IMG/VR virus record: IMGVR_UViG_3300020050_007388
Coordinates: 15,730 to 79,729 of that record
DNA: 64,000 nucleotides
DNA from: a virus
Taxonomy: Duplodnaviria > Heunggongvirae > Uroviricota > Caudoviricetes
Direction: 5' to 3' (one strand)
The position numbers were made by a program, and so were the translations under genes. Positions 291-51,699 of this stretch are shown one piece after another; position 1 is the first letter of the stretch, and every line of letters starts with the position of its first letter. Under the pieces are notes generated by a model. The model did no database searches and had not been told where the DNA came from. It saw only the letters and a list, made by a program, of their open reading frames with translations.

Positions 291-3200
291 TGGGAAAATA
301 TAGATTAGACAATCCAGCAAACACACCCTTAGATCCTTTTGCATTTGAGAAACAATTTGCTCAACCTAATCTTAACAATCCTTCACCTTTTTCTGGAGTA
401 GCAGGTTCTTTAGAAGTTGTTGCTCCAGATAGGGTGGATGATGGTTATGGTACAATGGGTAATTCTGGTTATGCCGTGCAAGTTATTAATGAAGCAAAAG
501 CTAGAAATCAAGGATCAGGTGAACTTATAGCTAAGGGTTTAGGTAATGTAGTAAAAACTATTGGTATAGAGATTGGTAAAACTCCAGGTTATCTTGGAGG
601 AGTAGTAGGTGCAATTGGAAATGAGGTTTTAGGAGATGGTAAACAATCTATGAGTATGATTGTAGATAATGGTTGGGTAAATGCTTTTGAAAGTTTAGAT
701 CAAGCTACAAAAGAAATGATGCCCATTTACATATCTCAACAAGTTCAGGAAGGTAATCTATGGGATAAAATGGGATCTGGTGCATGGTGGGCTTCCACTG
801 GTGCAGATGGAGCAGGATTTATGTTAGCTATGTTTGCACCTGGAGCTGTAGCCAAGGCTTTGAAGGTTGGTTCTGGTATTGCTAGAGTTGGTGAAGGTCT
901 AGCTAATGTAGCTCCTAAATTAGGTAAGTGGGCAACCGGTAAAGGATTGTTGGAATCAGTTGGAGACAGTTTTGCTTATACACAAAAGTTTGCTAGAAAT
1001 GCAGATGGTTATGCTTCAACGGTTCTTAATACAACTATCGAATCTTCTGCTGAAGCTGCTAATACTTTTGATAATTTAAAAAGTAAATATATAGCTGAAG
1101 GTTTATCAGAAGATCAAGCCAGTCAGAAAGCTGGTGAAGGTGCTGCTGCTGTATTCAAAGGTAATATGGCACTCTTAGCAGTATCTAATTACTTAGATGA
1201 AATGTGGATATGGAAAACAATTGGATCTGCAGGTTCTAAAGAAGCTGCTCAATCTGTGTTAAACAAAGTAATTAAAGATGGAGTAATAGATACTGAAGCA
1301 CTTAAGAATGTAGCAAAAGAATTTACAAGAGGTTCAGTCCTTAAAAAGGTTGGACAAAACATTGGTAAAAATATTTTAAAAGAAGGTTTCTATGAGGAAG
1401 GTTCACAAACTACTTTACAACAAAATATTGAAGAAGAAGGATCTAAAGGTTTCTTAGGTAACTTGGTTAATATTGGGGCATCTTATTTTGATGACTTTGC
1501 TAATAATACTGAGTTACACGAATCCATATTTCTTGGTGGACTTTTAGGAGGTAGTGCTTCTATAATTGGAACTGTTCAAGAAAACAACGCACTTAAAGCT
1601 GCACTAACTGGATCTAAAGGTAGAACTGCTGATAACTTCTGGACCAAATATGGTATCTTACCACAAACTAGTCCACAGAAAGGTTTAATTAATTTGGTTA
1701 ATGAAAATCACATTAAGCAATTTAGATCTTATAAAGACTTTCTGGAACCTGATGGTAATGGCTCATTTGTTTTGAACGAACAGAAATTAGCTGATGCTCA
1801 ATTAGAGCAAGTAGATAATCTACGAACTAACATTCTTTATGATATTTCTGTTGCAGAAGGTGATAAGTTGGGTCAAGAAATATATGGTCAATACTTAGCA
1901 GCCAATTATGCTCAGTCATTTTTAGGTCAAGAAGGTGGACAAGAGATATTTAATCAACATGTTCAAGATCAAGTTTTACCAGCTTGGAGAAAAAGGTTTG
2001 AAGATTCATTTGGTAGACCTGCAACTTCTAAAGAGGAATCAGATTACACAGCTAGTTTTAAACAATCTGGAGAAAGAGTTTTTAAAGCACATAACACAGC
2101 TTCAGAAACTAATTATCCCGAAAGATATTACAAAGAGAATAATCCTGATTATGCAGATTTCAGAAATGAATACTTCCATAATAAGTTCGAGACGTTAGTT
2201 ACCCTGGATGCTTTAAAAGAAAGAAGATCTCAAGTCAATAAAGATTTGATGGATGCAGGAGTTACCATTATAGATCTTGAAGATTTAAACACCATTAAGG
2301 ATCCAGTTAAGAAACAGTTAGCTCAACAAATTAAAAACGAGTTAGATCAAATTGATAAATACGAAGAATTATTAAATATACAGTATCCTAAATTCTTTTC
2401 CAAAGCTGGAGTTAAGGAAATGTATGAAAAGTTTAAAGCTCGTAAGAATAGATTTGAAGAACTATCGAAAGAAGCTGCACAAGAAAATCAAGAACTCAAG
2501 CAGGAAGTTGACTTTTTACCTGCAGCTAACCAAGCTGAAATTGATAGATTGATTAATGAGTCTAACTCTAATAATACCTCAATTCCACTTAAAGGGTCTA
2601 ATGGTAAAAACTATTCCTTAGTTAAGGATGAAACTACTGGTGAGAATAAGGTGTTTGATGAAAATGGTGAAGAAGTTACAACTAAACTATCTGATCTCAA
2701 ATTATCTGTCAATGATGTTTCTAAAGAGGACTTTGATTCATTCAAAGAAACTTCAGAAGCATCTGATGAAGTTCTTCAGAGAATTGCTGAAAAGTTAATT
2801 AATGGTGAACCTCTTTCAGATAATGAAAAGTTAATTGCTCAAACTGAAAAAGCTAAACTTCAAGATTTATTTAATAAAGAGAAAGCTAAAATTGCAGAAA
2901 GATTAGCTAAACAAGAAGCTGTTTCTACTTCAGTTGAAGATGATTCAATAGATGCTGATGAATCAATATCTCAAGTATCTGAAAAGAAAGGTGTTAATTT
3001 ATATCCATCTACTGGTAGGAATTTACAACAAGATTTGACAGAAATTAAACCTGGAGTATTTGTAGAAAAGATGACAGATAAACCTAGTCAAAAGTTATGG
3101 TTTGAAACTCTAGATCAAATTAAGAACCCTCAAGATTATACTGTTCAAGTTGTAAGAAAGGACGATAGATCCAATATGGATTTGTTTAACCAAATTGATA

Positions 3201-4852
3201 GAGATAGTAATGAGAATTCTAAGGTAGATGATCTATATGTTGTTCTTTATAAAAATGGTAAACCTGTAACTAAAGATGGTAACTATATTTTTACTGGACT
3301 TTGGAGACCTAATACACTTTACCCAGTTAAAGATGGTAAACCAAGAGATTTCATGTTGGCTGAAAAATCTATTTTAGATAACTTCTTATTTGATGTTAGA
3401 TTACCAAAACTTAAGTTAGGTAAGTTAACTAAAAATGATAAAGAAGTACTCACACAAAATGGGGTTACAGATTTCTCGGAACAAGGTATAATGACAGCAG
3501 CATTCTTTCATGCTAAAAAAGAATATCAAGAATGGTATCAATCTCTACAAGAGAATCCTGGTCAACTACAAGTTGCTGGTATTACTAAAGGTCATGCTGT
3601 TAAAGGTTACACTTCTAAAGATAAGTCTTCTAAATATTGGGGATCTCCATTTAATATCCCAGGTTTAAAACTAAGACCTAATCCAAAGTTAAACTCTGCG
3701 GATTTAGTTGGTGGTAAATTTGAAATGTCAATTGATGGAACTATTAAGGTTGGAGATGAAACTTACACTATCTCACAAGGTGATGTGGTTATTGTAGATG
3801 ACCAAAATAATGTTCATCCAATGAAAGCTAGGAATATAAATGAGGATGAAGTTAAGACTATCTTGTATCTATTAAGTTTAAGAACTGGAAACCAACCTAC
3901 TGAAACTTTTAAAATTAAACCTCCTAATGGAATCAGGTTTGGAAATACTGTTGTAAAGGACGTTCCCATATTCTTTAATGAATCTACTAAACGTAGACAA
4001 ACTAGAGCTAATTTAATTGAAACATTAATTTCATTTGGATCAAAGAATGGTGGTAAAGGTGAGATTTACTTTAATCAACAATCTGTGAATGATGGTAAGC
4101 CTGAATTAGTATGGACAGATTTTGAAGGCAATACTAAAAACATATCTGTTTCTCTCATTGAGAATGCTGTACAGAATAATGACTTCAGTCAGATTGATGA
4201 TTTAGTTTTATTTTTGCAGCAGAAAAAGTTTAATGTAAATGAACATCTATTGAGCAATCCTACATTTGTAAAACCTCAGTTAGTTTATAAAAGAGATCAG
4301 AATGGGAAACAGGTTCCTGAACTAGAATGGAATGAAGATCAATCTTATTATGAAGTTTTACTTGGTGATGTTCTAACTACTACTACACTTGATCTTCCAG
4401 GTTACCCATCTAGGGTTCAAAGAAATATGTGGTTTAATAAAGAGCCTTTATCTCAAGATGTTAAAATAGATGAAGTTTCAAATACTACAGGCTTAGAAAA
4501 CTTAGGTTCTGTTAATAGTGAAAAGGCTATTATGAAAGCAGATGTCGAGAGTAAAGGTGAGTTTAAAATAAATCTTACAGGTGCTTCAAAAGAGCAGTCC
4601 GATAAAGCCTGGAAAGATGCTAATGAACTAGTAAGCGAAGAAGATTATGAACTAGTTCTTATTGGATCTACTAACATTCTCACATTATCTAAAAAGCTTA
4701 AAATCTCTGCAAAAGAAAAACTTGCTGAAAAAATTAGAAATAGAAAAAATTCTTTAGACAGTTTTAAAGAAGATATGGATAAAATTCTTACAACTTCAGA
4801 TCTATTAAAGATGAAGATTCAAAATGGAGAAATCATTCAGAAATGCAAATAA
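290..4852 (+). CDS. giant virion-associated protein (1520 aa), unknown function; Gly-rich N-terminus and long charged coiled-coil-like central part
   Basis: Uninterrupted 4.5-kb ORF in an AT-rich genome. Start overlaps the previous stop (TAATG). First of three contiguous giant ORFs. No catalytic motif recognised. Confidence 0.7.
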   Translation: MGKYRLDNPANTPLDPFAFEKQFAQPNLNNPSPFSGVAGSLEVVAPDRVDDGYGTMGNSGYAVQVINEAKARNQGSGELIAKGLGNVVKTIGIEIGKTPGYLGGVVGAIGNEVLGDGKQSMSMIVDNGWVNAFESLDQATKEMMPIYISQQVQEGNLWDKMGSGAWWASTGADGAGFMLAMFAPGAVAKALKVGSGIARVGEGLANVAPKLGKWATGKGLLESVGDSFAYTQKFARNADGYASTVLNTTIESSAEAANTFDNLKSKYIAEGLSEDQASQKAGEGAAAVFKGNMALLAVSNYLDEMWIWKTIGSAGSKEAAQSVLNKVIKDGVIDTEALKNVAKEFTRGSVLKKVGQNIGKNILKEGFYEEGSQTTLQQNIEEEGSKGFLGNLVNIGASYFDDFANNTELHESIFLGGLLGGSASIIGTVQENNALKAALTGSKGRTADNFWTKYGILPQTSPQKGLINLVNENHIKQFRSYKDFLEPDGNGSFVLNEQKLADAQLEQVDNLRTNILYDISVAEGDKLGQEIYGQYLAANYAQSFLGQEGGQEIFNQHVQDQVLPAWRKRFEDSFGRPATSKEESDYTASFKQSGERVFKAHNTASETNYPERYYKENNPDYADFRNEYFHNKFETLVTLDALKERRSQVNKDLMDAGVTIIDLEDLNTIKDPVKKQLAQQIKNELDQIDKYEELLNIQYPKFFSKAGVKEMYEKFKARKNRFEELSKEAAQENQELKQEVDFLPAANQAEIDRLINESNSNNTSIPLKGSNGKNYSLVKDETTGENKVFDENGEEVTTKLSDLKLSVNDVSKEDFDSFKETSEASDEVLQRIAEKLINGEPLSDNEKLIAQTEKAKLQDLFNKEKAKIAERLAKQEAVSTSVEDDSIDADESISQVSEKKGVNLYPSTGRNLQQDLTEIKPGVFVEKMTDKPSQKLWFETLDQIKNPQDYTVQVVRKDDRSNMDLFNQIDRDSNENSKVDDLYVVLYKNGKPVTKDGNYIFTGLWRPNTLYPVKDGKPRDFMLAEKSILDNFLFDVRLPKLKLGKLTKNDKEVLTQNGVTDFSEQGIMTAAFFHAKKEYQEWYQSLQENPGQLQVAGITKGHAVKGYTSKDKSSKYWGSPFNIPGLKLRPNPKLNSADLVGGKFEMSIDGTIKVGDETYTISQGDVVIVDDQNNVHPMKARNINEDEVKTILYLLSLRTGNQPTETFKIKPPNGIRFGNTVVKDVPIFFNESTKRRQTRANLIETLISFGSKNGGKGEIYFNQQSVNDGKPELVWTDFEGNTKNISVSLIENAVQNNDFSQIDDLVLFLQQKKFNVNEHLLSNPTFVKPQLVYKRDQNGKQVPELEWNEDQSYYEVLLGDVLTTTTLDLPGYPSRVQRNMWFNKEPLSQDVKIDEVSNTTGLENLGSVNSEKAIMKADVESKGEFKINLTGASKEQSDKAWKDANELVSEEDYELVLIGSTNILTLSKKLKISAKEKLAEKIRNRKNSLDSFKEDMDKILTTSDLLKMKIQNGEIIQKCK

Positions 4853-4858
4853 TAAAAT

Positions 4859-7800
4859 ATGGCAGATTGTACTTTTGTATATAAAGGGAAATCATACTCT
4901 AAAGATCGGATTACTCGACTTTTAGTAGATGAACTTCCAGTAAGAAGTCAACAAGAAGGAATCAACTTCTTGAAAGAATTTTTAGGAATGACTGATGATG
5001 AAATCATAATCATTAAAGGTTTAATTGATGGAAAATCAATTGGTAGGTTTAAATCTGATGGTAAAATATTACTGTCAGATTTAGCCGAAACTGGAGTTGC
5101 TTATCATGAAGCATTCCATAGAGTCTGGAGAATGTTTTTAACTAATGAAGAAAGACTTCAAGCAATTAAAGAAGTAAAAGCTAGAAAGAATATTCAATTA
5201 ACCATTGATGGCTACAGAGAAGTTTATCCAAAGCTAAGTGAAAATGAATTGATTGAAGAAATTTTAGCTGATGAATTTTCAGACTTTAAGATGAATGAAG
5301 ATTATAAGACCGAACTTCCAATTAAAACCTTTTTCCAAAGATTGTGGAATTTCTTGAAAAAATTAGTTGGTCTTAAGACTTCTGATGTTCAATTGATTTA
5401 TGATAAGATTTTAAGTAAAACTTATAAGACTGCTCCTCAATCTGTACAACAGTATTTAAAAGATGCAGATAAAGTTTTAATTCAAGGTCATGAGTTTTCT
5501 GTTGAAGAAAAGAATGAGTTAATTCAAGTAATGACTCAACAGTTTGTTAAAGCAATGTTGGATCTTAACGGTAACATAGATGTATTCTTAAATTCACCAA
5601 CTGTTAAAATGAAACAATTGGTTGAGGACTATGTTATAACAAATATGTTATCTGACATGATGGATGCTGGAGTAAATGAAGATTTAGTTTCTGCAGTATT
5701 TCAAGATGTTGAAGCTTGGGTTGAGTCAAATAAATTTGAAGATTCCATATTTGTAAACGGAATGGTTCAGAACTTAAAGTTGATAGGATTAGTCATTAAA
5801 GATGATTCAGAAGATTTATCTGAAGGAGCTTTAGAAGGTGAAGAAAAACAAGCTAGAGAATATGGAGCTTCCATTGAGATTGACCCTAAATCTAAAATGG
5901 GTAAGAAGATTAAACTCTTATTGTCCAGTTTTTCAGATCCTAATGAAAAGACTACAAACTTTGGATTCCCAAAACCTGTAGGTTGGACCAAAGCTTTTGT
6001 TCAAATAGCCACTAAGATGGCAGGAATACCCACGTCTGTTTTTAGAGAAGAATTAAAAGCTCTAAATGTTCCATATATTCAAGACTTAATTGAAATCTTG
6101 GAAAAAGATGTAGTCTTTGGAAATGAATTTATCTCAACAATGGCCATGACTGAAAATAAATTCATGAAGATGAATTATAAGAATGGTGATATTTATTTCT
6201 TTGATGCTAACTCAGGAACTCGTAGAGACAAATTGGTTGGAGAATGGAAAAACAACTTAATCCGTAAAGTAGAGAATTGGGATGAATGGAAAGCAGAAGC
6301 TGCTGAATTAGAAAGAAAGAAGGGATCTGTTTCTGATGAAGAAATTATGGATCACTTTGGTTTAGTCCTTAATTTCCAAATTCCAGATCTACGTTCAGAC
6401 TTGAACTTCATTTTAAGTTTAGTAGATAAATATAAAGGAGATAAACCAGATCCTTCCAGGTTGTTTGAGCAATTAGGTATCAAAGGTTATGTCAATACTT
6501 TAGCAGAAAAACAATCTGCTTATGAAGATCATGTTGACTTGATGGTAATGTTGGGTTCTAAAAAGTTATATACGCTTGGATTAAATACTCAACAAACTCA
6601 AGTTGTAAATGGAGTTAAGTATGCTCAATCTAAGTTTACTCCAGATATGACTACAAGTCAAAAGATAGAGTTACTTAAAGAATTTGCACCATTTCAGGTC
6701 TCAGAGTTTAATATAACGAAATTAGAATCTGGAGAATACTTGATTCATAATAAATGGTTGGAAAAGATTCTAGAAGGTGAAAAACTGGAGTTGGTAATTC
6801 CTTATCAAGTAGATACTCAATCTGGAGAAGATTCTGAAATTGCTAAATTGGAAGAATCTGACTTAATGGCTTTACACTTAAATGGAGCTTTACAAGGAGT
6901 AAACATTAGCATGAAACATGCTGATCGTGGAACTTTCTTTGCTTATACATTTGGTAATAATAAACCTCTTTATACTAAGCAGGGTAATGTTGCAGATACT
7001 CTTAAGATCTTAGAAAGAAATATTATCGAACAGATTGAATTGGAAGCTAAGTTTTATAACAATATGTTGGAACGAAATATTCCAGTTCAATATATTGGTG
7101 AGCAAGACATTGATAATAAAAATGTTGATAAGCAAAAGTTTGGAGCATTTTCTAAAGATATTATTGGTGTAGATGATTTTAAAACATTATTAGCTACTGG
7201 TGAAGTTCCTAACAAATCTAAGATAACAGAGTTTGTAAGTAAAGCTTTTGAAGATTACAAAAAAAGTGTTGAAGCTTATGGATTGTTAGGAGAGTTCTCA
7301 GAACCCGTTTATAAAGATGGTAAAAGAACTGGAGAAATCAAGAAACTAAAAGGTGTTAATAATAACTTAAGGTTTCAATATGCCAATCTTGATTTGCTTT
7401 TAGCTTCAGCATTTACCAATGAAGTCTCTAGTCATATTTTTGAAGTAAGATTCTTTTCTGGAGACGTAAGGTCTTTTAAGTCTGGTACTGACTTATTCAA
7501 ACGTTTAGCTCCACAAAGTTCTACTGGTAATTTAACAGTTACAGATAATGTAGCTAATGAGGATGTTAGAGTAAAGTTAGATCAAGATTTTGAAATACTT
7601 AATCCAGTTACTGGAGAAACTGTAATAGTTAACCCAAGTAAAAATATTGGTGAAGGAAAAGATAAATACTTTAGGGCTGTAACTGGAGCTGAAAGATCTA
7701 ATTATAAAAGTCACTTACTAGAACCTGCATTAAGTTCTACTGGTAAACCTTTAGTATCTAAACTAACTGGAAATAATGAGTCTAAGTTATTCATGATGTT

Positions 7801-42301: not shown

Positions 42302-43600
42302 TCATTCTACAACCTCCTCTTCTTTATCCAAAGCTTTAGTTTCCATTTCAAGGAAAGCTTTAGATTTTAATTTGTAGGTCATTTTATTTTCAGATTCATT
42401 TCTAATGCAAATACCTTCTGCAGGAACCTTCTTAGTACAATATGTACAATTTTGTTCAAGATAAACTCTTTTTAAAGATTCCAAAAAGGTTTCTCCAATA
42501 TTAGAATTTTGAACACACCAACCTTTGATTGTTCCATAAAATAATTCTGGAACATGTTCCAACTGATGTTCTCTACAGAAATCTTTAATTTCATCCCATG
42601 AGTATTCTAATACTGCTCCCATACGAGTTGTCTGAGTTATTCTGTAAACTAAGAACTTATGTTCTCCTGGCTTACAACCATAATCATAACCAGCTTGAAT
42701 CATCTTCTCTCCAGTATAACCTACAATTTCTCCATAAATAGTATAACTTTGGAACAGTTTGTCTTTAATCTCTTCAAACACTTTCCCCCAAATATCAGAG
42801 TTATAATATCCTCCTTCAGGTGTATTGTATTTACCTTCAACAGATTTAATAACTGTTCTACTAGAATACATCTTAGAATACTCTTTAGTTTTTACATCAG
42901 AACCAAAGAATTTTTTAACTTTTTCCCAAAATGAAAGTTTTCTTTTAGTTAGAAGATTGGAGAATACTGCTGAAGTTCCATGCCATTTATCTGTAATAAC
43001 AATTTTATCATCTTCATTCTGAAACTTCCAAATATTATCTTGAAGTTTAGAAGTACTGTAATGGAAGTTAAACTGTCCTGGAATAAGGATGTCATTTACT
43101 TTAAGTATTTTCTTTTCTCCAGTTCCACCACCAGATCTAACTTCTTTAATTACAGGAACATATTTTTGGCAGATAGTATAACCATCTATTGTGTCAAACT
43201 CTTGGTTTATAAATTGTTGAGCTTCTCCAATAATGTCTAAATATGAGATACCTAAAACATTCATTATCTCGGAATAAGGTAAAACCATTCCTTCAGACAT
43301 TATTCCTCTAAGTTTTACAGCTCTAACCCTACCAGTCTTATGAACATAACCTGCTATATTCTTATCTTCATTCAAATCTTTATCTGAAAACAAATTCATT
43401 TTAGATAGAATCTTTTGATCTATCTGACATTCAATTGGAAAATAGATACATATATCTCCAGATTGTCTAGACATATCAGTGATAATTTCATACCCATTAA
43501 CGGAAAATATCTGTAAACGATTTGCATTAGGATGGACTTTAGGAATACCTAATTGTACAACTTTTGCAAGATAGTTAGAGGGTGTGTTAATTGTTAGCAT
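42302..43600 (-). CDS. Rnl2-like RNA ligase (covalent nucleotidyltransferase) with ~200-aa N-terminal extension
   Basis: Motif I KWHGTS (KxHGxN/S, RNA-ligase type rather than KxDG), motif III TIYGEIVG, motif IV EGICIR, motif V KLKSK, in canonical order and spacing. Confidence 0.55.
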   Translation of the reverse strand: MLTINTPSNYLAKVVQLGIPKVHPNANRLQIFSVNGYEIITDMSRQSGDICIYFPIECQIDQKILSKMNLFSDKDLNEDKNIAGYVHKTGRVRAVKLRGIMSEGMVLPYSEIMNVLGISYLDIIGEAQQFINQEFDTIDGYTICQKYVPVIKEVRSGGGTGEKKILKVNDILIPGQFNFHYSTSKLQDNIWKFQNEDDKIVITDKWHGTSAVFSNLLTKRKLSFWEKVKKFFGSDVKTKEYSKMYSSRTVIKSVEGKYNTPEGGYYNSDIWGKVFEEIKDKLFQSYTIYGEIVGYTGEKMIQAGYDYGCKPGEHKFLVYRITQTTRMGAVLEYSWDEIKDFCREHQLEHVPELFYGTIKGWCVQNSNIGETFLESLKRVYLEQNCTYCTKKVPAEGICIRNESENKMTYKLKSKAFLEMETKALDKEEEVVE

Positions 43601-44264
43601 ATTTTGTTATTTTATATTTTTTAGAAGTACCTCTTTGCATAATGTGTAAAACACCTCCATATGAAAGATTTAAACACTCTGCTATATTTTTAAGAGAATC
43701 GTGCATTATAAATACTCCATGTTGATAAAAGAAAAATTTCTGAGACCTAACATTTTCCCGTTTTGCAAAATTAAACGTCTTTATAATTTTTCTAACAGTA
43801 ATACGATTAATACCTAACTGTTTTGAAATTTCAATAATTTTTAAATCTTTATTATAAAGATCGTAAACAGCATCTTTATAATTTTCTATAAATTGTTTTT
43901 TGGTTAATGCAATTTTACTAATTGTACTAGGAGAATGTTTTAACCCTAAAATCCCTCTACCTCCATCAGTGAGGTTAACCAAAGACCCCGTTTTTATATT
44001 TCTTCTTCCGTATAACTTAATAAACTCTCTTTCTTTTATATCAAGAAAATTATTATCGCTGGTTTCAAAAATAATCTCTACTCTATATTTAGTTTTAGCA
44101 ACAATTCTATTCCAGAAAACACCTCGCCTTGTAGAAATAAATGCTCTAGCATAAAGATTTCTATAAGAGTTGTCTCTCTTACTTTTTGTGCCAATTCCAA
44201 TATAAAACGGAACATTTTTATCTAATCTAATGTGACGATAAATAAAATATTTATCCTCTTCCAC
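43587..44264 (-). CDS. GIY-YIG homing endonuclease with C-terminal HTH-like DNA-binding region
   Basis: YFIYRHIRLDKNVPFYIGIGTK ... R ... NLYARAF matches the GIY-YIG core. C-terminal KQLGINRITVRKII is helix-turn-helix-like. Confidence 0.6.
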   Translation of the reverse strand: MEEDKYFIYRHIRLDKNVPFYIGIGTKSKRDNSYRNLYARAFISTRRGVFWNRIVAKTKYRVEIIFETSDNNFLDIKEREFIKLYGRRNIKTGSLVNLTDGGRGILGLKHSPSTISKIALTKKQFIENYKDAVYDLYNKDLKIIEISKQLGINRITVRKIIKTFNFAKRENVRSQKFFFYQHGVFIMHDSLKNIAECLNLSYGGVLHIMQRGTSKKYKITKYANN

Positions 44265-44269
44265 GATAG

Positions 44270-44563
44270 TTACTTTGATTTTTTATTATTAACATTTAGA
44301 TATTCACCGTTTATTAAATATTCAAGTACTTTATACCGAGCTTCTTTTAAAGAGATTTCAATTGGTCTTCCCACACTTTGTTTAGATGTAGTCATTCTCA
44401 AAGTAGAAACTTTTCCATTATTGAAATAAAAAAATCTAGGGTAACCATCCAATTCAGTATTTCTAAGTGAAACACCCAATGTCTTTTTACCTCCATCGTT
44501 CCTGACAACTTTAATTCTAAGCTTAAATTTACTATCGTGAATTGTTGGATATAGCTTTTTCAT
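44270..44563 (-). CDS. hypothetical protein (97 aa)
   Basis: ORF only. Confidence 0.4.
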   Translation of the reverse strand: MKKLYPTIHDSKFKLRIKVVRNDGGKKTLGVSLRNTELDGYPRFFYFNNGKVSTLRMTTSKQSVGRPIEISLKEARYKVLEYLINGEYLNVNNKKSK

Positions 44564-44565
44564 AT

Positions 44566-44847
44566 TTATCGTCTTTCATTTAAAAGATAGTTTAAAATTA
44601 ATCGTTTAGCTTCTTTAGATTTATGTTCTCCAGTTACAGTAACAGAATAGTCTCCAAGAATTAATTGCCATTGTATTATTACATATCTCGGTTTATAAAC
44701 TTTTAATGTAATATCTCTAACATCATAATCCCTACTGGAAATTCTTAAATATGCCGTATGCTTACTATTTGGATAAACACTCGTATATCTATCAAAACTT
44801 AAAGTATATTTTGTATCTCCAAGTTCAAATTGTTTAAAAGTTCTCAT
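44566..44847 (-). CDS. hypothetical protein (93 aa)
   Basis: ORF only. Confidence 0.4.
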   Translation of the reverse strand: MRTFKQFELGDTKYTLSFDRYTSVYPNSKHTAYLRISSRDYDVRDITLKVYKPRYVIIQWQLILGDYSVTVTGEHKSKEAKRLILNYLLNERR

Positions 44848-45121
44848 TTAATAATCTTTCTATAGTTAACAATTGAGCTTGTTTTCTAGTAATATCAACT
44901 TTATAAATAGCTGTAAATGGAGATCTATATTCATAAATAGCCCCATATTTAATACAAGATCTATAAAATGCAAATCTAATGGTCAAATCATTTAAATATT
45001 TAACTGGAGTCAAATGTAAACTATAGGCTCTATCAGGATGACCTTTTACAGTAAACTCAATTTCCCATTCTAAGTCATGAATGAAAATTCTTTTCTTTAA
45101 AACAGTAATATTTGGTTGCAT
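44834..45121 (-). CDS. hypothetical protein (95 aa)
   Basis: ORF only. Confidence 0.4.
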   Translation of the reverse strand: MQPNITVLKKRIFIHDLEWEIEFTVKGHPDRAYSLHLTPVKYLNDLTIRFAFYRSCIKYGAIYEYRSPFTAIYKVDITRKQAQLLTIERLLNENF

Positions 45122-47046
45122 CTTTCAATCTCAGCTATAATTGTGTTTACTTTAGACAAATAAAACTTATAGTCAATATTATAATTTTCTAACTCTTGAT
45201 GTTGGTTATAAATCATAATACCTGTATCACTTAACATATGAGACCTTGTATAAATATTGTCTGTAATTTTAGTCTTTTTATTCAACCTTTCAACCCATCT
45301 ACATTTATATAAATATCCACCTTTAGTAGAAGCATAATATCTATTCAATCTTTGTTGTTTAACTCCTTTCCATTCAACAGTATAACTTCTATCTACCTTT
45401 TGGCTAGCACAGAAATCATAAATATGAAATTTACTCCAATCAACATCTTCAGGCTTAATCCCTTTAACAAAATATTCTTCCAGTAATTTAGGAATAATTA
45501 AGAAATCAGAGCTGTTGCCCAACTCAGGTTGAGTGACAAACATTCCTTTTTTCTTCAATTGCCCATTTTCTAAAATTGCAATATAATCATTAACAGAGCT
45601 ATAAATGATACTTCTGTAATTTTCACTTTCAAATTGAACATTAAACTTTTCCTCAACTTCTTTAACTAATTGGAAATAAGTTTGCATTTTATCATTAGGT
45701 ACAATAACCTCCAAACCATCAGTATTTAGACTAAGTACTTTGAAGCCATTTAAAATACATTTTTCCATTAGAAGTAAAAGAATTAATTGTCCTCCACATC
45801 TAACTTTCATAATCCCTTCAGAGTTAAACAACCATGAATACTCTAAATCCAATAAACCTGAAACACCATTTAAAATTAGTTTATAAAACAAATCTTGCTG
45901 GAAGAAGTTAGTCCATTCAGGAGAACCTTTGGAGTGTTGTTTCATTCCAGGTTTGGTTTCTGTAATCCGTTTAGTTTTAAAAGACTTATAGATATTTAAA
46001 ACTTCTGGAAATCTGAATGCATTCCAATTCTCAATGTTAGTTGGGTACATTGCAGCCACATCCGAAGTCAAGATTGTATGTGTATCTGTAGTATGATATA
46101 TTTCATTATTATTTACTGAATGAATACCACCTACACCACATGTAACTTGTATTGGATGATCTTTAGTACCAGTAAGAAATGTTTTATTAAATGTGTCCAC
46201 TGAATTACACCATTCAGAATATAGCTGTTTTAATTCAGGTAATTGAAACTCTATATTTAGATCTTTTAAAAGTCTTCCAAAATGTATTACAGGACGATCA
46301 AATCTTAGATCTCTTGTACTCTTTTCATCCTTCTTGGTAATCTTACAGTATTCTTTTAATAATGTCTCTGAAGCAATTTTAGGGCCATCCATAGACCATG
46401 CATTAATACCATAGTCTTTAACAACTTGTCCTCTTAATTGTATAGTTCCCAAGTTACCTAATGGAACTTTACTTTTACCTTCAAAAGCTTCTGTCAATAA
46501 CCTAAGAATACCTAAATCATGTTGAAGATTATAGTTCTTTAATTCAGCTCTTTGATCTTTATCTAGAATCATACTAGGATCAAACGGTAATTCCTGTATA
46601 GTATGATAACCTAACTGAATTCCCAACCCCTTCAAACTAATCTTTTTAGATTGTCTTAAACCTTTACTCCAATAAAGATATAAATCTACATTAGTAAACT
46701 TCCAATTAAAATATTTGTAAGGTTTAAGAGATTCAAAATTACCTTCTTCATCATTAATAATTTTATCTGAAAAGTTTTTCAAGTTTCTACATACTTCATA
46801 CCATCCTACACCTGGCCACCATCTATTTTTCTGACCATAAGCAAGAACCATATTGTCATAATGTAAACCATTAAAACTAATCCAAAAACCACTGTATTGG
46901 TTTAAGAATTTATATAGTTCTTGCCTTTGATCTATATCCTCAGCTATCTCAAAACTAGTTTTAATACCAGTTTTATAATCTTCAACACCTAATAAGAAAT
47001 ACTGAGGAAAAACTTCACAATCTATAAGTAACTGTTCCATAATCAT
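45097..47046 (-). CDS. DNA polymerase, family B-like, with 3'-5' exonuclease domain (compact, 649 aa)
   Basis: Exo I LIDCEVF (DxE), Exo II FNGLHYDNMVL, Exo III YNLQHDLGIL, motif A SDVAAMYPTNI (DxxSLYPS-like), motif B KLILNGVSG (Kx3NSxYG-like), motif C SLNTDGLEV (DTDS-like). Confidence 0.6.
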   Translation of the reverse strand: MIMEQLLIDCEVFPQYFLLGVEDYKTGIKTSFEIAEDIDQRQELYKFLNQYSGFWISFNGLHYDNMVLAYGQKNRWWPGVGWYEVCRNLKNFSDKIINDEEGNFESLKPYKYFNWKFTNVDLYLYWSKGLRQSKKISLKGLGIQLGYHTIQELPFDPSMILDKDQRAELKNYNLQHDLGILRLLTEAFEGKSKVPLGNLGTIQLRGQVVKDYGINAWSMDGPKIASETLLKEYCKITKKDEKSTRDLRFDRPVIHFGRLLKDLNIEFQLPELKQLYSEWCNSVDTFNKTFLTGTKDHPIQVTCGVGGIHSVNNNEIYHTTDTHTILTSDVAAMYPTNIENWNAFRFPEVLNIYKSFKTKRITETKPGMKQHSKGSPEWTNFFQQDLFYKLILNGVSGLLDLEYSWLFNSEGIMKVRCGGQLILLLLMEKCILNGFKVLSLNTDGLEVIVPNDKMQTYFQLVKEVEEKFNVQFESENYRSIIYSSVNDYIAILENGQLKKKGMFVTQPELGNSSDFLIIPKLLEEYFVKGIKPEDVDWSKFHIYDFCASQKVDRSYTVEWKGVKQQRLNRYYASTKGGYLYKCRWVERLNKKTKITDNIYTRSHMLSDTGIMIYNQHQELENYNIDYKFYLSKVNTIIAEIERCNQILLF

Positions 47047-47735
47047 TTATATTTCCAAGATTTGGGATTATGTTTTGACGGAAGTTTTTGTTTACCCCTT
47101 AAAACAAGACTTAAATGTTTATAGGAAAGATTATTTATCTTACACATCTCTGTGAGAGATTTGTATTCTTTAACTACTGTACCATTTTCCATTTCTAATA
47201 CAGGTTTTGCCCTCATTCCTTCAATAGATTTCCAATTTTTAGGTATCTTACCTTTTAATGCAGCACTTACTTTTTGACTTATAAGCCTCCTTGTTTCTAG
47301 TGGTATAATTCCACCTCCTGTGTGTCCATCATGAGAACAGTTGAATCCTAACTTAACACAATTAAATTGCTTAATATAAAATTCTTCTCTTGATCTTGAT
47401 ACTGATTTATCACATAATTCAACAATTTCAAATACTAAATTCTCAAAACCATATTTGTTTACATAATTTTGTAATTTTGGGGAGTGATGTGTTCCAGCTC
47501 GTAAAGACATAATATGGTGATACAGTCTAATATAAAATCCAACCCTAAATTTTTTATATCTACCTGAATTAGTTTGTATTGCACTTCCAATGTAAACTCT
47601 TTTCTTAACATCATTACTAAAATAAAGTTTGTATATTCCAGTAGCAGATATTAATTTAGGATCTTTTGGCAATAACTGTAAAACCTTATCTTTTACAGAA
47701 AAACACTCTATATCAATTAGCTTCTGTTCCATCAT
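47043..47735 (-). CDS. GIY-YIG homing endonuclease; first 12 aa mimic the DNA polymerase N-terminus
   Basis: TGIYKLYFSNDVKKRVYIGSA ... R ... H matches the GIY-YIG core. N-terminus MMEQKLIDIECF compared with polymerase MIMEQLLIDCEVF. Confidence 0.65.
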   Translation of the reverse strand: MMEQKLIDIECFSVKDKVLQLLPKDPKLISATGIYKLYFSNDVKKRVYIGSAIQTNSGRYKKFRVGFYIRLYHHIMSLRAGTHHSPKLQNYVNKYGFENLVFEIVELCDKSVSRSREEFYIKQFNCVKLGFNCSHDGHTGGGIIPLETRRLISQKVSAALKGKIPKNWKSIEGMRAKPVLEMENGTVVKEYKSLTEMCKINNLSYKHLSLVLRGKQKLPSKHNPKSWKYK

Positions 47736-47925
47736 GACTTGGAAAATGTAAACTTAAAATAGAATCTCTATCTAAAACATGGGAATATTCTTTAATTACA
47801 ACTTCTAAACATTTCCTAACATACCATTCAGCATACTCTTTCATACATAAATCTATACATTCTTCATAATCAGTATAACCTCCTTCTAAAATAATACGTT
47901 CTTTTATTTCTTCAATTTTTGTCAT
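47713..47925 (-). CDS. hypothetical protein (70 aa)
   Basis: ORF only. Confidence 0.35.
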   Translation of the reverse strand: MTKIEEIKERIILEGGYTDYEECIDLCMKEYAEWYVRKCLEVVIKEYSHVLDRDSILSLHFPSHDGTEAN

Positions 47926-48260
47926 ACTATGTCTAATATTTTATTTGAAAATAAGATACTTGATATTTCAGTTCCCTGATAAATAATCGGATCAAATTTT
48001 ATCTCTAAAAATTTAGTTCCTGTTCCTCTACCAGTAATTGATTTAATCACTACATCAATGTCTTCTAAATTAGTATAATCATACCAATTATTAGGATCAC
48101 TAAACTCTTCCTTAGTTGTAAATACCTGATATTTATAATGGGTGCCAAAATTACTTTTTGGTCCATATTGTGCAAACCATAACTTTACAGTTTTACCTTC
48201 ATACAATCTTTTCAACTCATTATTAATTAATGTCTTCCAACTTGATATTTTTATTCTCAT
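47922..48260 (-). CDS. hypothetical protein (112 aa)
   Basis: ORF. ATG overlaps the stop of the upstream helicase exon 2 (ATGA at 48257-48260). Confidence 0.5.
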   Translation of the reverse strand: MRIKISSWKTLINNELKRLYEGKTVKLWFAQYGPKSNFGTHYKYQVFTTKEEFSDPNNWYDYTNLEDIDVVIKSITGRGTGTKFLEIKFDPIIYQGTEISSILFSNKILDIV

Positions 48261-48406
48261 AGTTTATCTAACAACTGTTTAAGATTACTGCAATATATAA
48301 ATGGAGCATTTAACTCTTCCGTCATACTTTCAAACCACTTTTCTTCTTGAGTTCCTGCAGTTAAATGAATTATAACATTACCTACTTGTTTGTCCTGTCT
48401 TAGCCT
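48257..48406 (-). CDS. SF2 helicase, proposed exon 2 (motif VI arginines plus C-terminal tail)
   Basis: In-frame RLRQDKQVGNVIIHLTAG...; an in-frame TGA lies ~17 codons upstream at ~48458. Joining to exon 1 after ...QMVG recreates motif VI QMVGRLRQ. Confidence 0.45.
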   Translation of the reverse strand, partial: RLRQDKQVGNVIIHLTAGTQEEKWFESMTEELNAPFIYCSNLKQLLDKL

Positions 48407-49289
48407 CTTTTTGTCAATACAGTTATTTCTCTCAGATGTCAACCTGGACTGTATTCCTACTTTTCAATAGGGATCGGACTATATCTTTATTCAGAGTACT
48501 CTGAATATCTACTGTTTCAGAAAGATTGACTTCTTTCCTACCCTTATTACTAAGGTATTACTTAGATATTTTATATTCCATTGAAGGAATAATAAAATTA
48601 CGAATAACATTTGCTAATTTTCTACCTTCTTTTAATCTACAAACCAAAGCAAAATTATTTTTCATTTTTCTCTGTCCAAACTGAACATCATATTTAGATT
48701 TAAACCAATCAATTATTATTTGATTATCTTCTTTTGATATACAAGTAGACAATGTTGAAATTGAAGACCGAATATTGTTATTAGGTTTACAATATTCCAT
48801 GCTACAACTACCATCATCCATCCACCATATTGCTATATGAATAGGTTCTAGCTTGTTTAAAATCTTTTGAGAAATAACTTTTTTGTTATCTGGATATAGA
48901 ACTCTTCTAAGAAGTTTAGTGTAATCTGATATTTTAACTCTAAAACCAACTTGTTTAAAGTTTCCAGAATCTCTATATAATACACCAGAATGAGTAAGTA
49001 ATGGTCTAATTAAATCGGCTTTATATTTCACATACTCTTCCTGATTAATAGAATGCCACACTTCAATTCTACCATTTTTATCAATACTTCCGTCTCCTAT
49101 ACACATTGATAAAAGCAAATGTCTATGTTTTTTTGTAATTTTCATATCTCTTACGCTATTGCGAAGTTTAAATTGTAATTTTAGTCTCTACACACGCCCG
49201 GAATATAAATTCCTGCTTGGCTCGGTATTCCCATATCATTTTTTGACTTAGGGTTCACCGAATTAAATAGAATTATGGGCAAGCTATTC
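48407..49289 (-). mobile_element. putative group I intron (~883 nt) carrying a LAGLIDADG homing endonuclease ORF, inserted in SF2 helicase motif VI
   Basis: Helicase ORF ends abruptly at ...TQMVGE* right at motif VI; continuation is in-frame 0.88 kb downstream. A double-motif LAGLIDADG ORF lies between. Proposed 5' exon ends in U (ggu) and the intron ends in G (aaaag), as group I introns require. The ORF-free flanks carry palindromes (e.g. cagagtactctg at ~48491). Confidence 0.5.
48558..49145 (-). CDS. LAGLIDADG homing endonuclease (two-motif, monomeric type)
   Basis: LLLSMCIGDGSI (motif 1) and IAIWWMDDGSC (motif 2) about 95 aa apart, typical of double-motif LAGLIDADG enzymes. Confidence 0.75.
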   Translation of the reverse strand: MKITKKHRHLLLSMCIGDGSIDKNGRIEVWHSINQEEYVKYKADLIRPLLTHSGVLYRDSGNFKQVGFRVKISDYTKLLRRVLYPDNKKVISQKILNKLEPIHIAIWWMDDGSCSMEYCKPNNNIRSSISTLSTCISKEDNQIIIDWFKSKYDVQFGQRKMKNNFALVCRLKEGRKLANVIRNFIIPSMEYKISK

Positions 49290-50372
49290 ACCCACCATTT
49301 GAGTAAAATCTTTGTTCTTACTATAATATGCCAACAAAACAACATTATCTAATCCAGGTATATTCTCACCTTGTTTAAGAATCCTATTAGATCCTGTTAA
49401 CTTTGTTTTACCAGCTTTAAAATCTGCCAAATCCTGAACATAATTAGGATTATCTGACACAATAGATGTTGGGCATATATCTAACAAAGTAGCACTATCT
49501 TGACCAAATACTAAAGTTTTACCTGGCAACTTACTTATTAGATCTTTACATAGTTTTATTTTACTTGGTAAACTGTAAAGAAACCTAGCTCTTCTAGTTG
49601 CTACTTGAATAGTTCTAAACTTCTTTTCTTCAGCAGTTTTATACTTTGCAAACATAGCATCTCTAACAGACTTATCTAAATAACTATAGTTTAACTTTTC
49701 AGTAGTCCAGAATGTTTGACCTTTAGCTCCAGCTTGAATATTTCTATTAACATCATCTAATTGATGTTTAAGAACAAAAAACTTAATATCCCTAGTTGTC
49801 TTATTATCCATTGACTCTTGTAAAGAGTATGTATAAACAACTGGGCAGAACTTTTTAAGTAAATCAAACTTAGTAATCTCTTGACCTTGAATAAGATATT
49901 GAGTTTTCTTATCTATTGTAGCCGATAAACCTAACTTCGCATAAAGTGTAAATGTTCCATGATAATGAGAGTTTGAGTTATTAATAAACTCAATTCTTTT
50001 ATCACTAAGAATATCATGAATCTCATCCATGACAATAATTGTATTATCTACTACCGCATTGGGAAAGTAATCCCATAAGTTATATTTGTAAGCCCCTTGA
50101 TAAGTTGCAAATTTGAACTTGTAACCTTTCAGTGGATCCACACCATAGAATTTCTTATATTGTTGAGCATCTTGTAGAACAGTATTCTCCCTAACTACAG
50201 TCTCAGCTAAAAATAAAACATTGCTGCCTTTAGGCATACTTAAAATACACTTAAAAGCAACAAATGTTTTACCAGTGCCTGTAGCTTGTTCTATGGTTCC
50301 TATTTTACCATTATTTAACCAAGCCTGATGTGCTTCAGTTTGGACCTTTTCTTTAACTTTGTTGAGCATCAT
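49284..50372 (-). CDS. SF2 (DEAH/SNF2-like) DNA helicase, exon 1
   Basis: Motif I ATGTGKTFVAF, motif II VMDEIHDI, motif III LGLSATIDKK, motif V QGENIPGLDNVVLLAY. Ends TQMVGE* where motif VI (QxxGRxxR) should continue. Confidence 0.7.
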   Translation of the reverse strand: MMLNKVKEKVQTEAHQAWLNNGKIGTIEQATGTGKTFVAFKCILSMPKGSNVLFLAETVVRENTVLQDAQQYKKFYGVDPLKGYKFKFATYQGAYKYNLWDYFPNAVVDNTIIVMDEIHDILSDKRIEFINNSNSHYHGTFTLYAKLGLSATIDKKTQYLIQGQEITKFDLLKKFCPVVYTYSLQESMDNKTTRDIKFFVLKHQLDDVNRNIQAGAKGQTFWTTEKLNYSYLDKSVRDAMFAKYKTAEEKKFRTIQVATRRARFLYSLPSKIKLCKDLISKLPGKTLVFGQDSATLLDICPTSIVSDNPNYVQDLADFKAGKTKLTGSNRILKQGENIPGLDNVVLLAYYSKNKDFTQMVGE

Positions 50373-50967
50373 AATCTTTTTTAAATTTCCATAAATATCC
50401 TCCTAAACTTGCTCGTTTACCCAAAGCCACTTGACTTAATGACCCAGAACTTAATTTACAAACCAACCCTGCTTCTTTTATACAGCTAAATTCTGCAAGA
50501 ACTTTATGAGTCATCATATCTATTTTATATATTGGTTTACGATTAGAAGTGTGCTTTCTAGCATATTGAGCATCACTCATTCTTTTCTTGGATTCAATAC
50601 TTCTTTTCTTACCTGTATTTGCTTTTATTAATTTAGCTATTGATTCTTTACTTAATTTTCTTCCTAAACGGCTTCCTGCAATCTTTAATGCGTTATATTC
50701 AGGTTTATAATTATTTATGAAGTATTGTTCAATTCTAATTAAATGTTCCTTAGGACAGGTAAATAATATTTCAAACATGAAATTATCAGAACCATATTTA
50801 TTCCAACTTCTCTGTAAATATTTGGAATGATGCTTATTTTGTCTTAAATCATATCTATGAACTCCCCACCGAAGCCTAATATTTATTGCTGAACCAATAT
50901 AACACTTTCTTGTAGTTATATTAGTGATCTTATAAATACCTGAAATGGAATTTGATAACTTAATCAT
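50353..50967 (-). CDS. GIY-YIG homing endonuclease
   Basis: SGIYKITNITTRKCYIGSA ... R ... H ... YLQRSWNKYGSDNFMFEIL. Its 3' end overlaps the helicase start by 20 nt. Confidence 0.75.
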   Translation of the reverse strand: MIKLSNSISGIYKITNITTRKCYIGSAINIRLRWGVHRYDLRQNKHHSKYLQRSWNKYGSDNFMFEILFTCPKEHLIRIEQYFINNYKPEYNALKIAGSRLGRKLSKESIAKLIKANTGKKRSIESKKRMSDAQYARKHTSNRKPIYKIDMMTHKVLAEFSCIKEAGLVCKLSSGSLSQVALGKRASLGGYLWKFKKDYDAQQS

Positions 50968-50973
50968 AGAATA

Positions 50974-51201
50974 TCAAGCATGGATTATACTTTTAATGTG
51001 AAAATATACACAGCTCTCAATTGGTGTATTGGGTAAATAGCAAACACAAGTAAGTTTGTTTTGTTTTGCTAAAATAATTACTTCTTTAGGAGTTTCTCCA
51101 ACTAACCATATTAGATTGGAGAAACTCTCTATTGGATGTGTATGATTAAGTTTTAACTTTCTCACGATATAATTGCTAAAAGTAACATAAACATAGCCCA
51201 A
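50974..51201 (-). CDS. hypothetical protein (75 aa)
   Basis: ORF only. Confidence 0.3.
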   Translation of the reverse strand: MGYVYVTFSNYIVRKLKLNHTHPIESFSNLIWLVGETPKEVIILAKQNKLTCVCYLPNTPIESCVYFHIKSIIHA

Positions 51202-51264
51202 TAGAAAGTTATTTCACATAACTCTCCGGCATTAATTTCTGGTTCTACATGATATGTAGGTTTA

Positions 51265-51699
51265 TTAATTTTCAATTGTTCCTTCATCTCCTGATGAAAT
51301 TGATTTCTGATAACTTTCATATTCTTCTTTTGTTGATGGTAAATAAAAAAATAAATGTGTCCAAGTTTCACGTTCTTGAAACATCTTTCCTGTAAAAACG
51401 GTTCCACTAAACCCTCCTACTTTCTTTACAACTTTTACAATTTCATTTCTAGATATAAGTTTAAGATAATCTGGAATATCTTCAACCTTCCTTTCTTCCC
51501 ACCATTCTAACTTTTTAAATATTGCTGGATATTCGTCTGGGCAAAAAGCATCAAATGGATGAGGTGAAGTATAAAAAGTTCCATCACCAGACCAATGATC
51601 TTGCCCAACAATTATTTCTCCAATATTAAAAGTTCCTTGATTTCCAGGAAAATCAGCAATAACCTTCCACCTTGGTTTCATTAATTCTTCTGTACTCAT
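51265..51699 (-). CDS. hypothetical protein (144 aa)
   Basis: ORF only. Confidence 0.5.
   Translation of the reverse strand: MSTEELMKPRWKVIADFPGNQGTFNIGEIIVGQDHWSGDGTFYTSPHPFDAFCPDEYPAIFKKLEWWEERKVEDIPDYLKLISRNEIVKVVKKVGGFSGTVFTGKMFQERETWTHLFFYLPSTKEEYESYQKSISSGDEGTIEN

Follow-up and report, generated by a model that had tools for sequence, protein, structure and literature searches.

The DNA considered here, hereafter the window, is a 64,000-nucleotide (nt) stretch of a Caudoviricetes genome (positions 15,730 to 79,729 of IMG/VR record IMGVR_UViG_3300020050_007388), in which a phage DNA polymerase gene is preceded immediately by the open reading frame (ORF) of a putative GIY-YIG homing endonuclease. 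The endonuclease ORF (47043..47735, minus strand, 230 aa) opens with ATGATGGAACAGAAGCTAATTGATATAGAGTGTTTT, encoding MMEQKLIDIECF, while the polymerase gene (45097..47046, minus strand, 649 aa), which would be both the target of the endonuclease and its host gene, opens with ATGATTATGGAACAGTTACTTATAGATTGTGAAGTTTTT, encoding MIMEQLLIDCEVF. The minus strand encodes every gene in this part of the window, and the endonuclease stop codon and polymerase start codon overlap as ATGA. The initial annotation had pointed out that both ORFs start with an Exo I-type peptide in DNA that is only moderately similar, and this is indeed so: aligned from the methionine of MEQ, the two starts are identical at 8/11 residues and 22/33 nt, in a window of 31% G+C. 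The upstream copy, hereafter the leader (47700..47735, minus strand), reads ATG ATG GAA CAG AAG CTA ATT GAT ATA GAG TGT TTT (MMEQKLIDIECF), keeps the D-I-E of the motif and is the relic of the native polymerase start. We put at roughly 80% the probability that a free-standing GIY-YIG homing endonuclease gene has lodged within the first dozen codons of a phage family-B DNA polymerase gene.

The duplicated start stands alone in this DNA. In a six-frame scan of the whole 64 kb, a match of at least 7/11 residues to MEQLLIDCEVF was reached solely by the polymerase and the leader, and none of 100 Markov-1 shuffles reached 8/11. Among ORFs of at least 100 aa in the window, only the endonuclease has a first 12 residues that recur within 3 kb. 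Apart from this coding duplication, a repeat finder returned no meaningful inverted or direct repeats flanking the insert. By eye, an 8-bp inverted match, TTTCCAAG/CTTGGAAA, can be made out.

The relationship between the two copies is fixed by relatives that lack the endonuclease. The polymerases P0014, P0015 and P0043 start MEQKLIDIECF, identical to the endonuclease leader at 11/11 residues, and the endonuclease-free loci L129 (encoding P0015), L130 and L132 each have one intact polymerase start, MEQKLIDIECF or MNQLLIDIEVF, as the initial annotation had predicted for such relatives. In L129 a 68-aa ORF (MTKIEEI...KDSIL...) runs directly into the polymerase start (ATGGAACAGAAACTAATAGATATTGAATGTTTC|CCTACTTAC, with the break before CCTACT), and its homologue in the window, a 70-aa ORF (47713..47925, minus strand), marks the native left flank. 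The window matches L129 continuously across this upstream ORF and the leader (ATGGAACAGAAGCTAATTGATATAGAGTGTTTT) up to TTT, the Phe codon, diverges after the leader into endonuclease sequence (TCTGTAAAAGAT...), and picks up the homology again at CCTCAGTATTTC (CCT), after ...TGGAAATATAAATGATTATGGAACAGTTACTTATAGATTGTGAAGTTTTT; from this break and resumption of the alignment it follows that the insert sits between polymerase codons 11 and 12. The 3' end of the 70-aa ORF extends 23 nt into the leader, the stop codon present in L129 having been lost (the ORF ends CATGAGTAATGG in L129 vs CATGATGG in the window).

The insert thus delimited consists of the endonuclease body with its stop codon, a new ATG that overlaps the latter, and a second copy of the first ~11-15 codons of the polymerase. 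The original ATG of the polymerase, with the first 11 codons, has been left behind upstream as an in-frame N-terminal leader on the endonuclease, and the polymerase is read from the rebuilt start. The inserted gene itself (residues 13-230 plus stop; 47043..47699, minus strand) is absent from L129, L130 and L132, and the same site is occupied in the window and in 9 loci of relatives and vacant in these three and in ~60 other alleles. Compared with the L129 and L130 polymerase starts, the leader is identical at 28-29/33 nt and every difference (4-5 nt) is synonymous, as would be expected of a stretch that served as a polymerase N-terminus until recently. The initial annotation had proposed that the endonuclease entered the 5' end of the polymerase gene with duplication of its target. 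The L129 empty site supports the insertion and confirms the duplication, with the refinement that it is the upstream leader that is the native start, the polymerase 5' end now in use being an imported, recoded copy. The other possibility raised there, an endonuclease expressed as an in-frame fusion to a polymerase leader, also fits the data.

The polymerase matches phrog_1252 in PHROG (DNA polymerase, E=5e-97) and none of the Pfam families, and its nearest annotated relatives in a protein search are crAss-like phage DNA polymerases, at ~30% identity. An AlphaFold model (pLDDT 89.2, pTM 0.82) finds its top Foldseek matches in archaeal PolB and Pol alpha (E=1e-15 to 1e-12), and the predicted fold is that of family B. 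D9 and E11 are invariant among 32 homologues, and the model places both on the first beta-strand (strand 5-13); by its position and conservation, the D-x-E fits the Exo I motif. In all, ~3,300 homologues of the polymerase were found. A nucleotide search of a phage collection with the 3.3-kb region gave only a single 104-nt match, and close cultured relatives are therefore absent.

For the endonuclease, PHROG homing-endonuclease families match the 230-aa ORF from residue 33 on. A family profile built from the window ORF and eight homologues matches the catalytic domain of I-TevI (1ln0, 1mk0; E=2.5e-6), and hhalign pairs this profile with a Pfam-positive GIY-YIG ORF elsewhere in the window at 98.3% probability. 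PF01541 does not match the window endonuclease at E<=0.01, nor P0003, P0006 and P0009 at E<=0.1, and on sequence criteria the family is assigned to a divergent GIY-YIG subfamily visible only by profiles and PHROGs. The catalytic domain (47331..47639, minus strand) has the pattern GIYKLYF...RVYIGSA...R...H...E...N, in which G33, I34, Y35, Y48, G50, R70, H74, E117 and N132 do not vary among 9 homologues. Conservation within the family extends to the C-terminal half, which contains a weak NUMOD-like segment (47085..47174, minus strand; PF22083, I-HmuI NUMOD-like, E=0.0076, under the curated cut-off), a putative DNA-binding module. Pairwise dN/dS within the family is 0.11-0.22, and these are therefore maintained genes. 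Residues 1-12, the leader, lie outside the family-homologous region, and residues 13-32 form a family-specific N-terminal extension. At its 3' end the ORF reads TGG AAA TAT AAA TGA (WKYK, then stop; 47043..47057, minus strand), which overlaps the new polymerase ATG and holds a purine-rich, Shine-Dalgarno-like GGAAA. The W-x-Y-K-stop ending and the ATGA overlap, or a close abutment, are kept in relatives, with GGAGG at the same place in L002 and L005.

Nine loci with full-length endonuclease homologues were retrieved by exact-protein look-ups; scans with the endonuclease alignment yielded only distant GIY-YIG genes in other contexts in IMG/VR (<=39% identity) and no match in a metagenome scan. 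The endonuclease is immediately upstream of the polymerase in 9/9 loci, mostly with stop/start overlap, and the upstream copy of the polymerase start takes several forms. It is fused in frame to the endonuclease in the window, L002 (MRQLLIDIEVF), L005 (MEQLLIDIKKQ) and L008 (MKQTLADIEVP); it is a short, stop-terminated ORF in L012 (MYSNKVLIDIEV), L013 (MILADIDLWF) and L014 (MKQTLIDIEV); and it is degenerate in L011 and gone from L009. The L012 leader is identical to the N-terminus of the endonuclease-free polymerases P0040 and P0098, and the working polymerase at that locus has a new N-terminus (MGIQVNGK...) coded across the endonuclease 3' end. D and E are kept in the working copy at all loci and lost from some leaders (DIK in L005, DID in L013); the upstream copy is therefore a decaying relic and the downstream copy the functional one.

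The initial annotation had reasoned that the same duplicated peptide in an unrelated gene of relatives lacking the endonuclease would count against homing. A second copy of the polymerase start is missing from all of the ~60 distinct polymerase alleles that have no endonuclease beside them, and the sole extra duplicate, at L070, is again fused to an endonuclease. Here (2972..3514), a protein with NUMOD4 (E=1.4e-12) and HNH_3 domains lies directly upstream of the polymerase and begins MKILYDVE, the polymerase N-terminus of P0069 and P0127; the L070 polymerase itself starts MKILFDVEVY. With its polymerase-like leader, this HNH endonuclease indicates that the same solution arose independently with a second endonuclease family. 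The description of the window as a molecular scar of homing is thereby upheld in substance and altered in scope, the arrangement being the conserved architecture of a whole endonuclease family and not a one-off.

The endonucleases of L011-L014 have a start of their own, preceded by a promoter-like TAnnTTTG box, which we take to resemble the -7 promoter box of Bacteroidota. The box suggests that the host may belong to Bacteroidota and that endonucleases not fused to a leader may have a promoter of their own. A conserved GTTCTGAAC...TTTTTTGTA..TTTG with the TAnnTTTG is found between leader and endonuclease at ~150-192 of L011, ~680-725 of L012 and ~2960-3000 of L013.

The downstream copy of the duplication (46996..47046, minus strand), MIMEQLLIDCEVFPQYF, is the working N-terminus of the polymerase, an imported and recoded 5' patch. 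At the x of its Exo I D-x-E stands TGT (Cys; 47017..47019, minus strand), a position at which Ile (ATA or ATT) is found in the leader and in endonuclease-free relatives. D-I-E (GAY ATW GAR) characterizes the eight leaders as a group (the exceptions again being L005 and L013) and most endonuclease-free alleles. The endonuclease-adjacent working copies, on the other hand, have D-C-E (GAT TGY GAR) in 6/9 lineages, D-V-E in 1/9 and D-I-E in 2/9. Set against other distinct alleles, of which 4/60 have Cys, the 6/9 gives an odds ratio of 28 (Fisher p=1.2e-4, uncorrected for phylogeny). Cys alleles are scattered over the polymerase tree, and the nearest neighbour of each is an Ile allele.

Comparison of near-identical polymerases locates the exchanged segment. 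L001 and L129 agree at only 35/51 nt in the 5' patch vs 172/183 nt in the remainder (the window differs from L129 at 15-16 of the same 51 nt); between L001 and the window, the patch agrees at 46/51 nt and the remainder at 141/183 nt. Likewise, P0048 and L050 share 29/45 aa of the patch and 344/347 aa of the remainder, and L002 and P0021 share 71/100 and 524/536 aa, respectively. Codons 1-9 of the window and L002 are identical at 26/27 nt, with adjoining 5' sequence at only 57-60%. The copy in use in the window is of foreign origin by the same measure, being close to those of L001 (46/51 nt) and L002 (26/27 nt) on different backbones. From such alignments the rebuilt 5' patch is seen to move horizontally onto otherwise near-identical polymerase backbones, and localised 5' mosaicism of this kind is the signature that homing with co-conversion of flanking markers would be expected to leave, with tract ends variable in length.

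L001 is one of the four Cys alleles without an endonuclease, having lost both endonuclease and leader and kept the downstream-type start. Its 76-nt helicase-polymerase spacer (2103..2183) encodes MNKQLNSGVYCIYNKQTYKFYIGSNK, then a stop, and is joined to the last codon before the polymerase ATG. This spacer appears better explained as a 26-codon GIY...YIGS remnant of an internally deleted endonuclease, lying beside a D-C-E polymerase. The remnant may stem from an endonuclease of the window type or of the helicase-adjacent type found in L050. We had considered the similarity of the L001 intergenic sequence to that upstream of the window leader as flank homology, an explanation dropped because the endonuclease remnant accounts for it better. 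In L133 (3500..3560), which is D-C-E and endonuclease-free, an upstream 66-aa ORF ends TGTGGAAAATATAAACAG..., resembling the endonuclease end TGGAAATATAAATGA; this ORF end may be a fused endonuclease remnant or may resemble one by chance.

If the window endonuclease is a homing enzyme, it would cut the D-I-E polymerase 5' ends of endonuclease-free genomes near the insertion point, and repair from an endonuclease-bearing genome would copy the cassette in, by homing with co-conversion. The leader in carriers would keep only the left half of the target region. A rebuilt copy beside the unchanged remainder would restore the full target unless recoded; carriers would be shielded from self-cleavage by such recoding, most conspicuously of ATA to TGT/TGC (which puts Cys for Ile in D-x-E), along with the splitting off of the leader copy. 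Because ATA to TGT/TGC alters all three bases within a constrained motif, it is a good candidate for the protective change. The founding event would have been a break in a recipient's polymerase start, repaired from a donor in which the polymerase was directly preceded by a free-standing endonuclease; on the right, the junction would have formed by homology, and on the left the ends would have been joined illegitimately, in one-sided double-strand-break repair. T4 intron homing offers a documented case of such repair (Parker et al. 1999, as summarised in PMC2988022). Once in place, the endonuclease would be translated from the old initiation region of the polymerase, and the polymerase probably by ATGA coupling or from the purine-rich endonuclease 3' end, TGGARRTAYAAATGA.

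A bolder form of this proposal, to which we give slightly less than an even chance, is that of a self-contained mobile "duplicate and recode" cassette, made up of the endonuclease and ~50 nt of rewritten polymerase start. The cassette would cut the start of the essential polymerase, insert in frame behind the native start and use that start for its own expression, with the Ile to Cys change conferring immunity. It would have arisen at least 2 times here (GIY-YIG and HNH) and would spread the Exo I Cys horizontally through a large uncultured phage clade distantly related to crAss-like phages.

Several other explanations compete with that of a homing endonuclease and its rebuilt target. The similarity might be one of chance or composition between two AT-rich ORFs that happen to start Met-Glu-Gln and to carry a D-x-E-like peptide, and the window copies are, after all, identical at only 22/33 nt. 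Against this stand the uniqueness of the pair in 64 kb and the shuffles (0/100 at 8/11), the 11/11 identity of the leader to relatives' polymerase N-termini, the recurrence of the same duplication at eight further endonuclease loci, and above all the synteny of the leader with the L129 empty-site polymerase start, an alignment that already refutes chance; we consider the idea vanishingly improbable. Hardly more credible is a group I intron whose endonuclease ORF is fused to exon 1 (the leader), such that splicing would join codon 11 to codon 12 (MMEQKLIDIECF|PQYF...) and leave the downstream copy intronic. The spliced product would be a good polymerase with an N-terminus identical to those of P0014 and P0015, organellar intron ORFs are commonly fused in frame to the exon that precedes them (PMC8393795), and this phage group is rich in intervening sequences. 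However, no Rfam match at E<=1 was found across 44000..51500 (the helicase insert described below is likewise unmatched, so that sensitivity to phage introns is unproven), and the insert is a conserved protein ORF plus 40 nt, with no space for a ribozyme core (P3-P9). The downstream copy, moreover, begins with an ATG of its own and is in no relative without its D and E, whereas leaders acquire stop codons (L012, L013, L014) or broken motifs (L005 DIK, L013 DID), and L001 keeps a downstream-type start despite the loss of endonuclease and leader. The "exon 1" of the initial annotation is thus not borne out. An intein was rejected too, as a stop codon closes the endonuclease ORF and the polymerase starts anew. 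With a stop of its own, a polymerase with its own start and no Rfam match, the endonuclease would seem not to be embedded in a self-splicing intron or intein.

Two further alternatives accept the insertion and dispute what its parts do. The leader might be retained for function, as a polymerase initiation or regulatory copy that times endonuclease expression with that of the polymerase, or as a homology arm for homing. The synonymous character of all 4-5 nt differences from L129 and L130 would suit such a role, as would the maintenance of the in-frame fusion by four lineages and its reappearance in the HNH endonuclease, and in organelles fusion to the upstream exon is thought to lend intron ORFs the expression signals of the host gene (PMC8393795). 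Yet a recent insertion predicts synonymous-only differences equally well; the leaders of L011-L014 are stop-truncated or degenerate, with an endonuclease that has its own start after the TAnnTTTG box; and the leader is lost from L009, so that the role is not general. We regard a functional leader as unlikely, though in the fused subfamily such a role may apply. Less easily set aside, and a serious alternative to immunity even if the less probable of the two, is that the Cys codon of D-C-E is a neutral hitch-hiker from the founding donor lineage, with protection coming only from other differences or from disruption of the site. Lying ~25 nt from the endonuclease stop, the codon would be carried along by co-conversion in nearly all homing events, whatever its function, and endonuclease and Cys occur apart in both directions (endonuclease and no Cys in L009, L013 and L014; Cys and no endonuclease in L133, L051 and L096). 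On the other side, the duplication rebuilds a complete 5' end beside the unchanged remainder, so some recoding is needed against self-cleavage; ATA to TGT/TGC replaces a single codon in all three bases, inside a catalytic motif that is otherwise conserved; and Cys has been retained even as identity among the endonucleases fell to 55-63%.

A number of observations weigh against homing with protective recoding, a proposal in which the recognised sequence, the cut site and the protective effect of Cys are all putative. Cys is not necessary, since the endonuclease occurs with D-I-E in L009 and L014 and with D-V-E in L013. Nor is it sufficient, L051/L054, L096 and L133 being D-C-E with no endonuclease nearby. 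The D-C-E in P0049 (locus L133) predicted an upstream endonuclease, and none was found at the locus; the rule that every D-C-E allele adjoins an endonuclease thus failed for L133, and L051/L054 and L096 depart from it as well. The endonucleases have diverged (55-74% aa) about as far as the polymerases. Long co-residence and a largely vertical history, in which homing is confined to close relatives, are therefore no less likely than frequent transfer over long distances. Leader and rebuilt copy have lineage-specific residues in common at L008, L013 and L014, which leaves a model of native leader and foreign patch incomplete and suggests that conversion tracts are partial or that the copies occasionally exchange sequence. 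In L002, the leader departs from the N-terminus of P0021, the nearest relative without the endonuclease. Finally, an internal TTG (codon 22) is a possible start of the window endonuclease ORF, and translation of the leader is putative.

Further putative mobile elements lie nearby, both in the window and in its relatives. The window helicase gene (48257..50372, minus strand) is split into parts of 362 aa (49284..50372) and 61 aa (48257..48442) by an insert of ~840 nt, which carries a LAGLIDADG ORF (48558..49145; PF03161, E=7e-23); the helicase is intact, at 408-412 aa, in L001, L130 and L050. The insert looks like an intron with a homing endonuclease, though it has no Rfam match. Two more endonuclease-like ORFs of the window, within the same 8 kb, lack the duplicated leader of their neighbour: a Pfam-positive GIY-YIG/NUMOD3 ORF overlapping the helicase start (50353..50967, minus strand) and a GIY-like ORF with a helix-turn-helix (HTH) domain downstream of the polymerase cluster (43587..44264, minus strand). 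In L050 an I-TevI-like GIY-YIG ORF (2472..3185; MKSGIYQI...WKYK, then stop) starts on the helicase stop and is followed by a 107-aa ORF and then a D-I-E polymerase; endonucleases of this phage group thus have a second landing site at the helicase 3' end.

Within the polymerase body, a stop near codon 322-335 closes the frame, and GIY-YIG ORFs come next, in L001 (3322..4257 and 4529..5473, two inserts), L005 (2231..2923), L009 (2249..3022) and L013 (4830..5534). These inserts probably mark a recurrent intron or endonuclease site, at which the window polymerase is uninterrupted. Sister-clade polymerases (N-termini ...HFEVS...) need a +1 shift near codon 25, at ~3675-3690 in L014/L015, ~3495-3505 in L056/L057 and ~3500-3510 in L071. 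The shift site has the form NNN-C-GGN (ACT CGG TGA, ACA CGG TGA, TCC CGG AGA), and the in-frame relative L058 is without it. As the site is conserved across diverged contigs from different samples, it is a candidate for programmed +1 frameshifting rather than an assembly error.

By analogy, the closest precedent would be the endonuclease-borne replacement of gene ends in fungal mitochondria, where hybrids of genes with mobile ORFs (mORFs) have C-terminal duplications in Glomus atp6, atp9, cox2 and nad3 (PMC3630166) and, according to the citation of Paquin et al. 1994 in the same paper, in Allomyces macrogynus atp6; Tremella mitochondrial inserts have N-terminal duplications (PMC7315562). There, too, the endonuclease ORF travels with a foreign target-gene end that is in use, the native end is left as a duplicate, and in-phase fusions with the host gene occur. 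The native copy is nearer to relatives in both settings (91% vs 64% nt for Glomus atp6; 85-88% vs 67% here), and the differences are synonymous in both. Unlike the fungal examples, the window case belongs to a phage genome and not an organelle, and lies at the 5' end of its gene, where the relic gives the endonuclease its start instead of trailing as a pseudogene. Its duplication is only 33 nt, its imported copy rewrites a catalytic-motif codon, its stop and start overlap as ATGA, and two endonuclease families occupy the same site.

The free-standing Seg and Mob endonucleases of T-even phages (GIY-YIG and HNH; intronless homing; PMC2988022) resemble the window enzyme in lying between or against conserved genes and in being present or absent among relatives. 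They also share the co-conversion of flanking markers, the protection of the carrier by target sequence differences (which for the window enzyme we infer), and a modular, I-TevI-like catalytic domain. In contrast, they are described as inserted between genes, and a duplicated, recoded piece of the target and a target-derived leader are not described in PMC2988022.

With I-TevI of the T4 td intron the window endonuclease shares homology of the catalytic domain and a two-part architecture in which the C-terminal region is likely DNA-binding. It differs from I-TevI in not being intronic and in having 32 residues before GIY (12 of leader and 20 of extension) as against ~2, and its C-terminal region is unrelated in sequence, bar the weak NUMOD-like match. 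Also related in kind, reportedly, are the T4 mobA plus gene 60 cassette and the splitting of Aeh1 nrdA by mobE, in each of which a cassette lies inside an essential gene and extra sequence both preserves function and shields the carrier. In those cases the host gene is said to be split or to need translational bypass, whereas the window polymerase stays whole by virtue of its rebuilt 5' end. A full-text literature search, of incomplete coverage, found no phage example of such an arrangement.

An arrangement known from fungal mitochondria is thus extended to phages. Natural before-and-after alleles (L129 and the window, L129 and L001, P0021 and L002) locate the insertion with single-codon precision and the co-conversion tract to within some dozens of bases, and they lead to testable predictions as to the target of the enzyme and the single-codon change that would confer immunity. 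For annotation, an endonuclease ORF of this kind is mistakable for a polymerase fragment, and phylogenies based on the polymerase are affected. For the phage group itself, the cassette would account for the mosaic N-termini of its polymerases and for the occurrence of Cys at a catalytic-motif position. More generally, a selfish nuclease gene can, on this evidence, settle in the very coding start of an essential gene harmlessly, by duplicating and rewriting its target.

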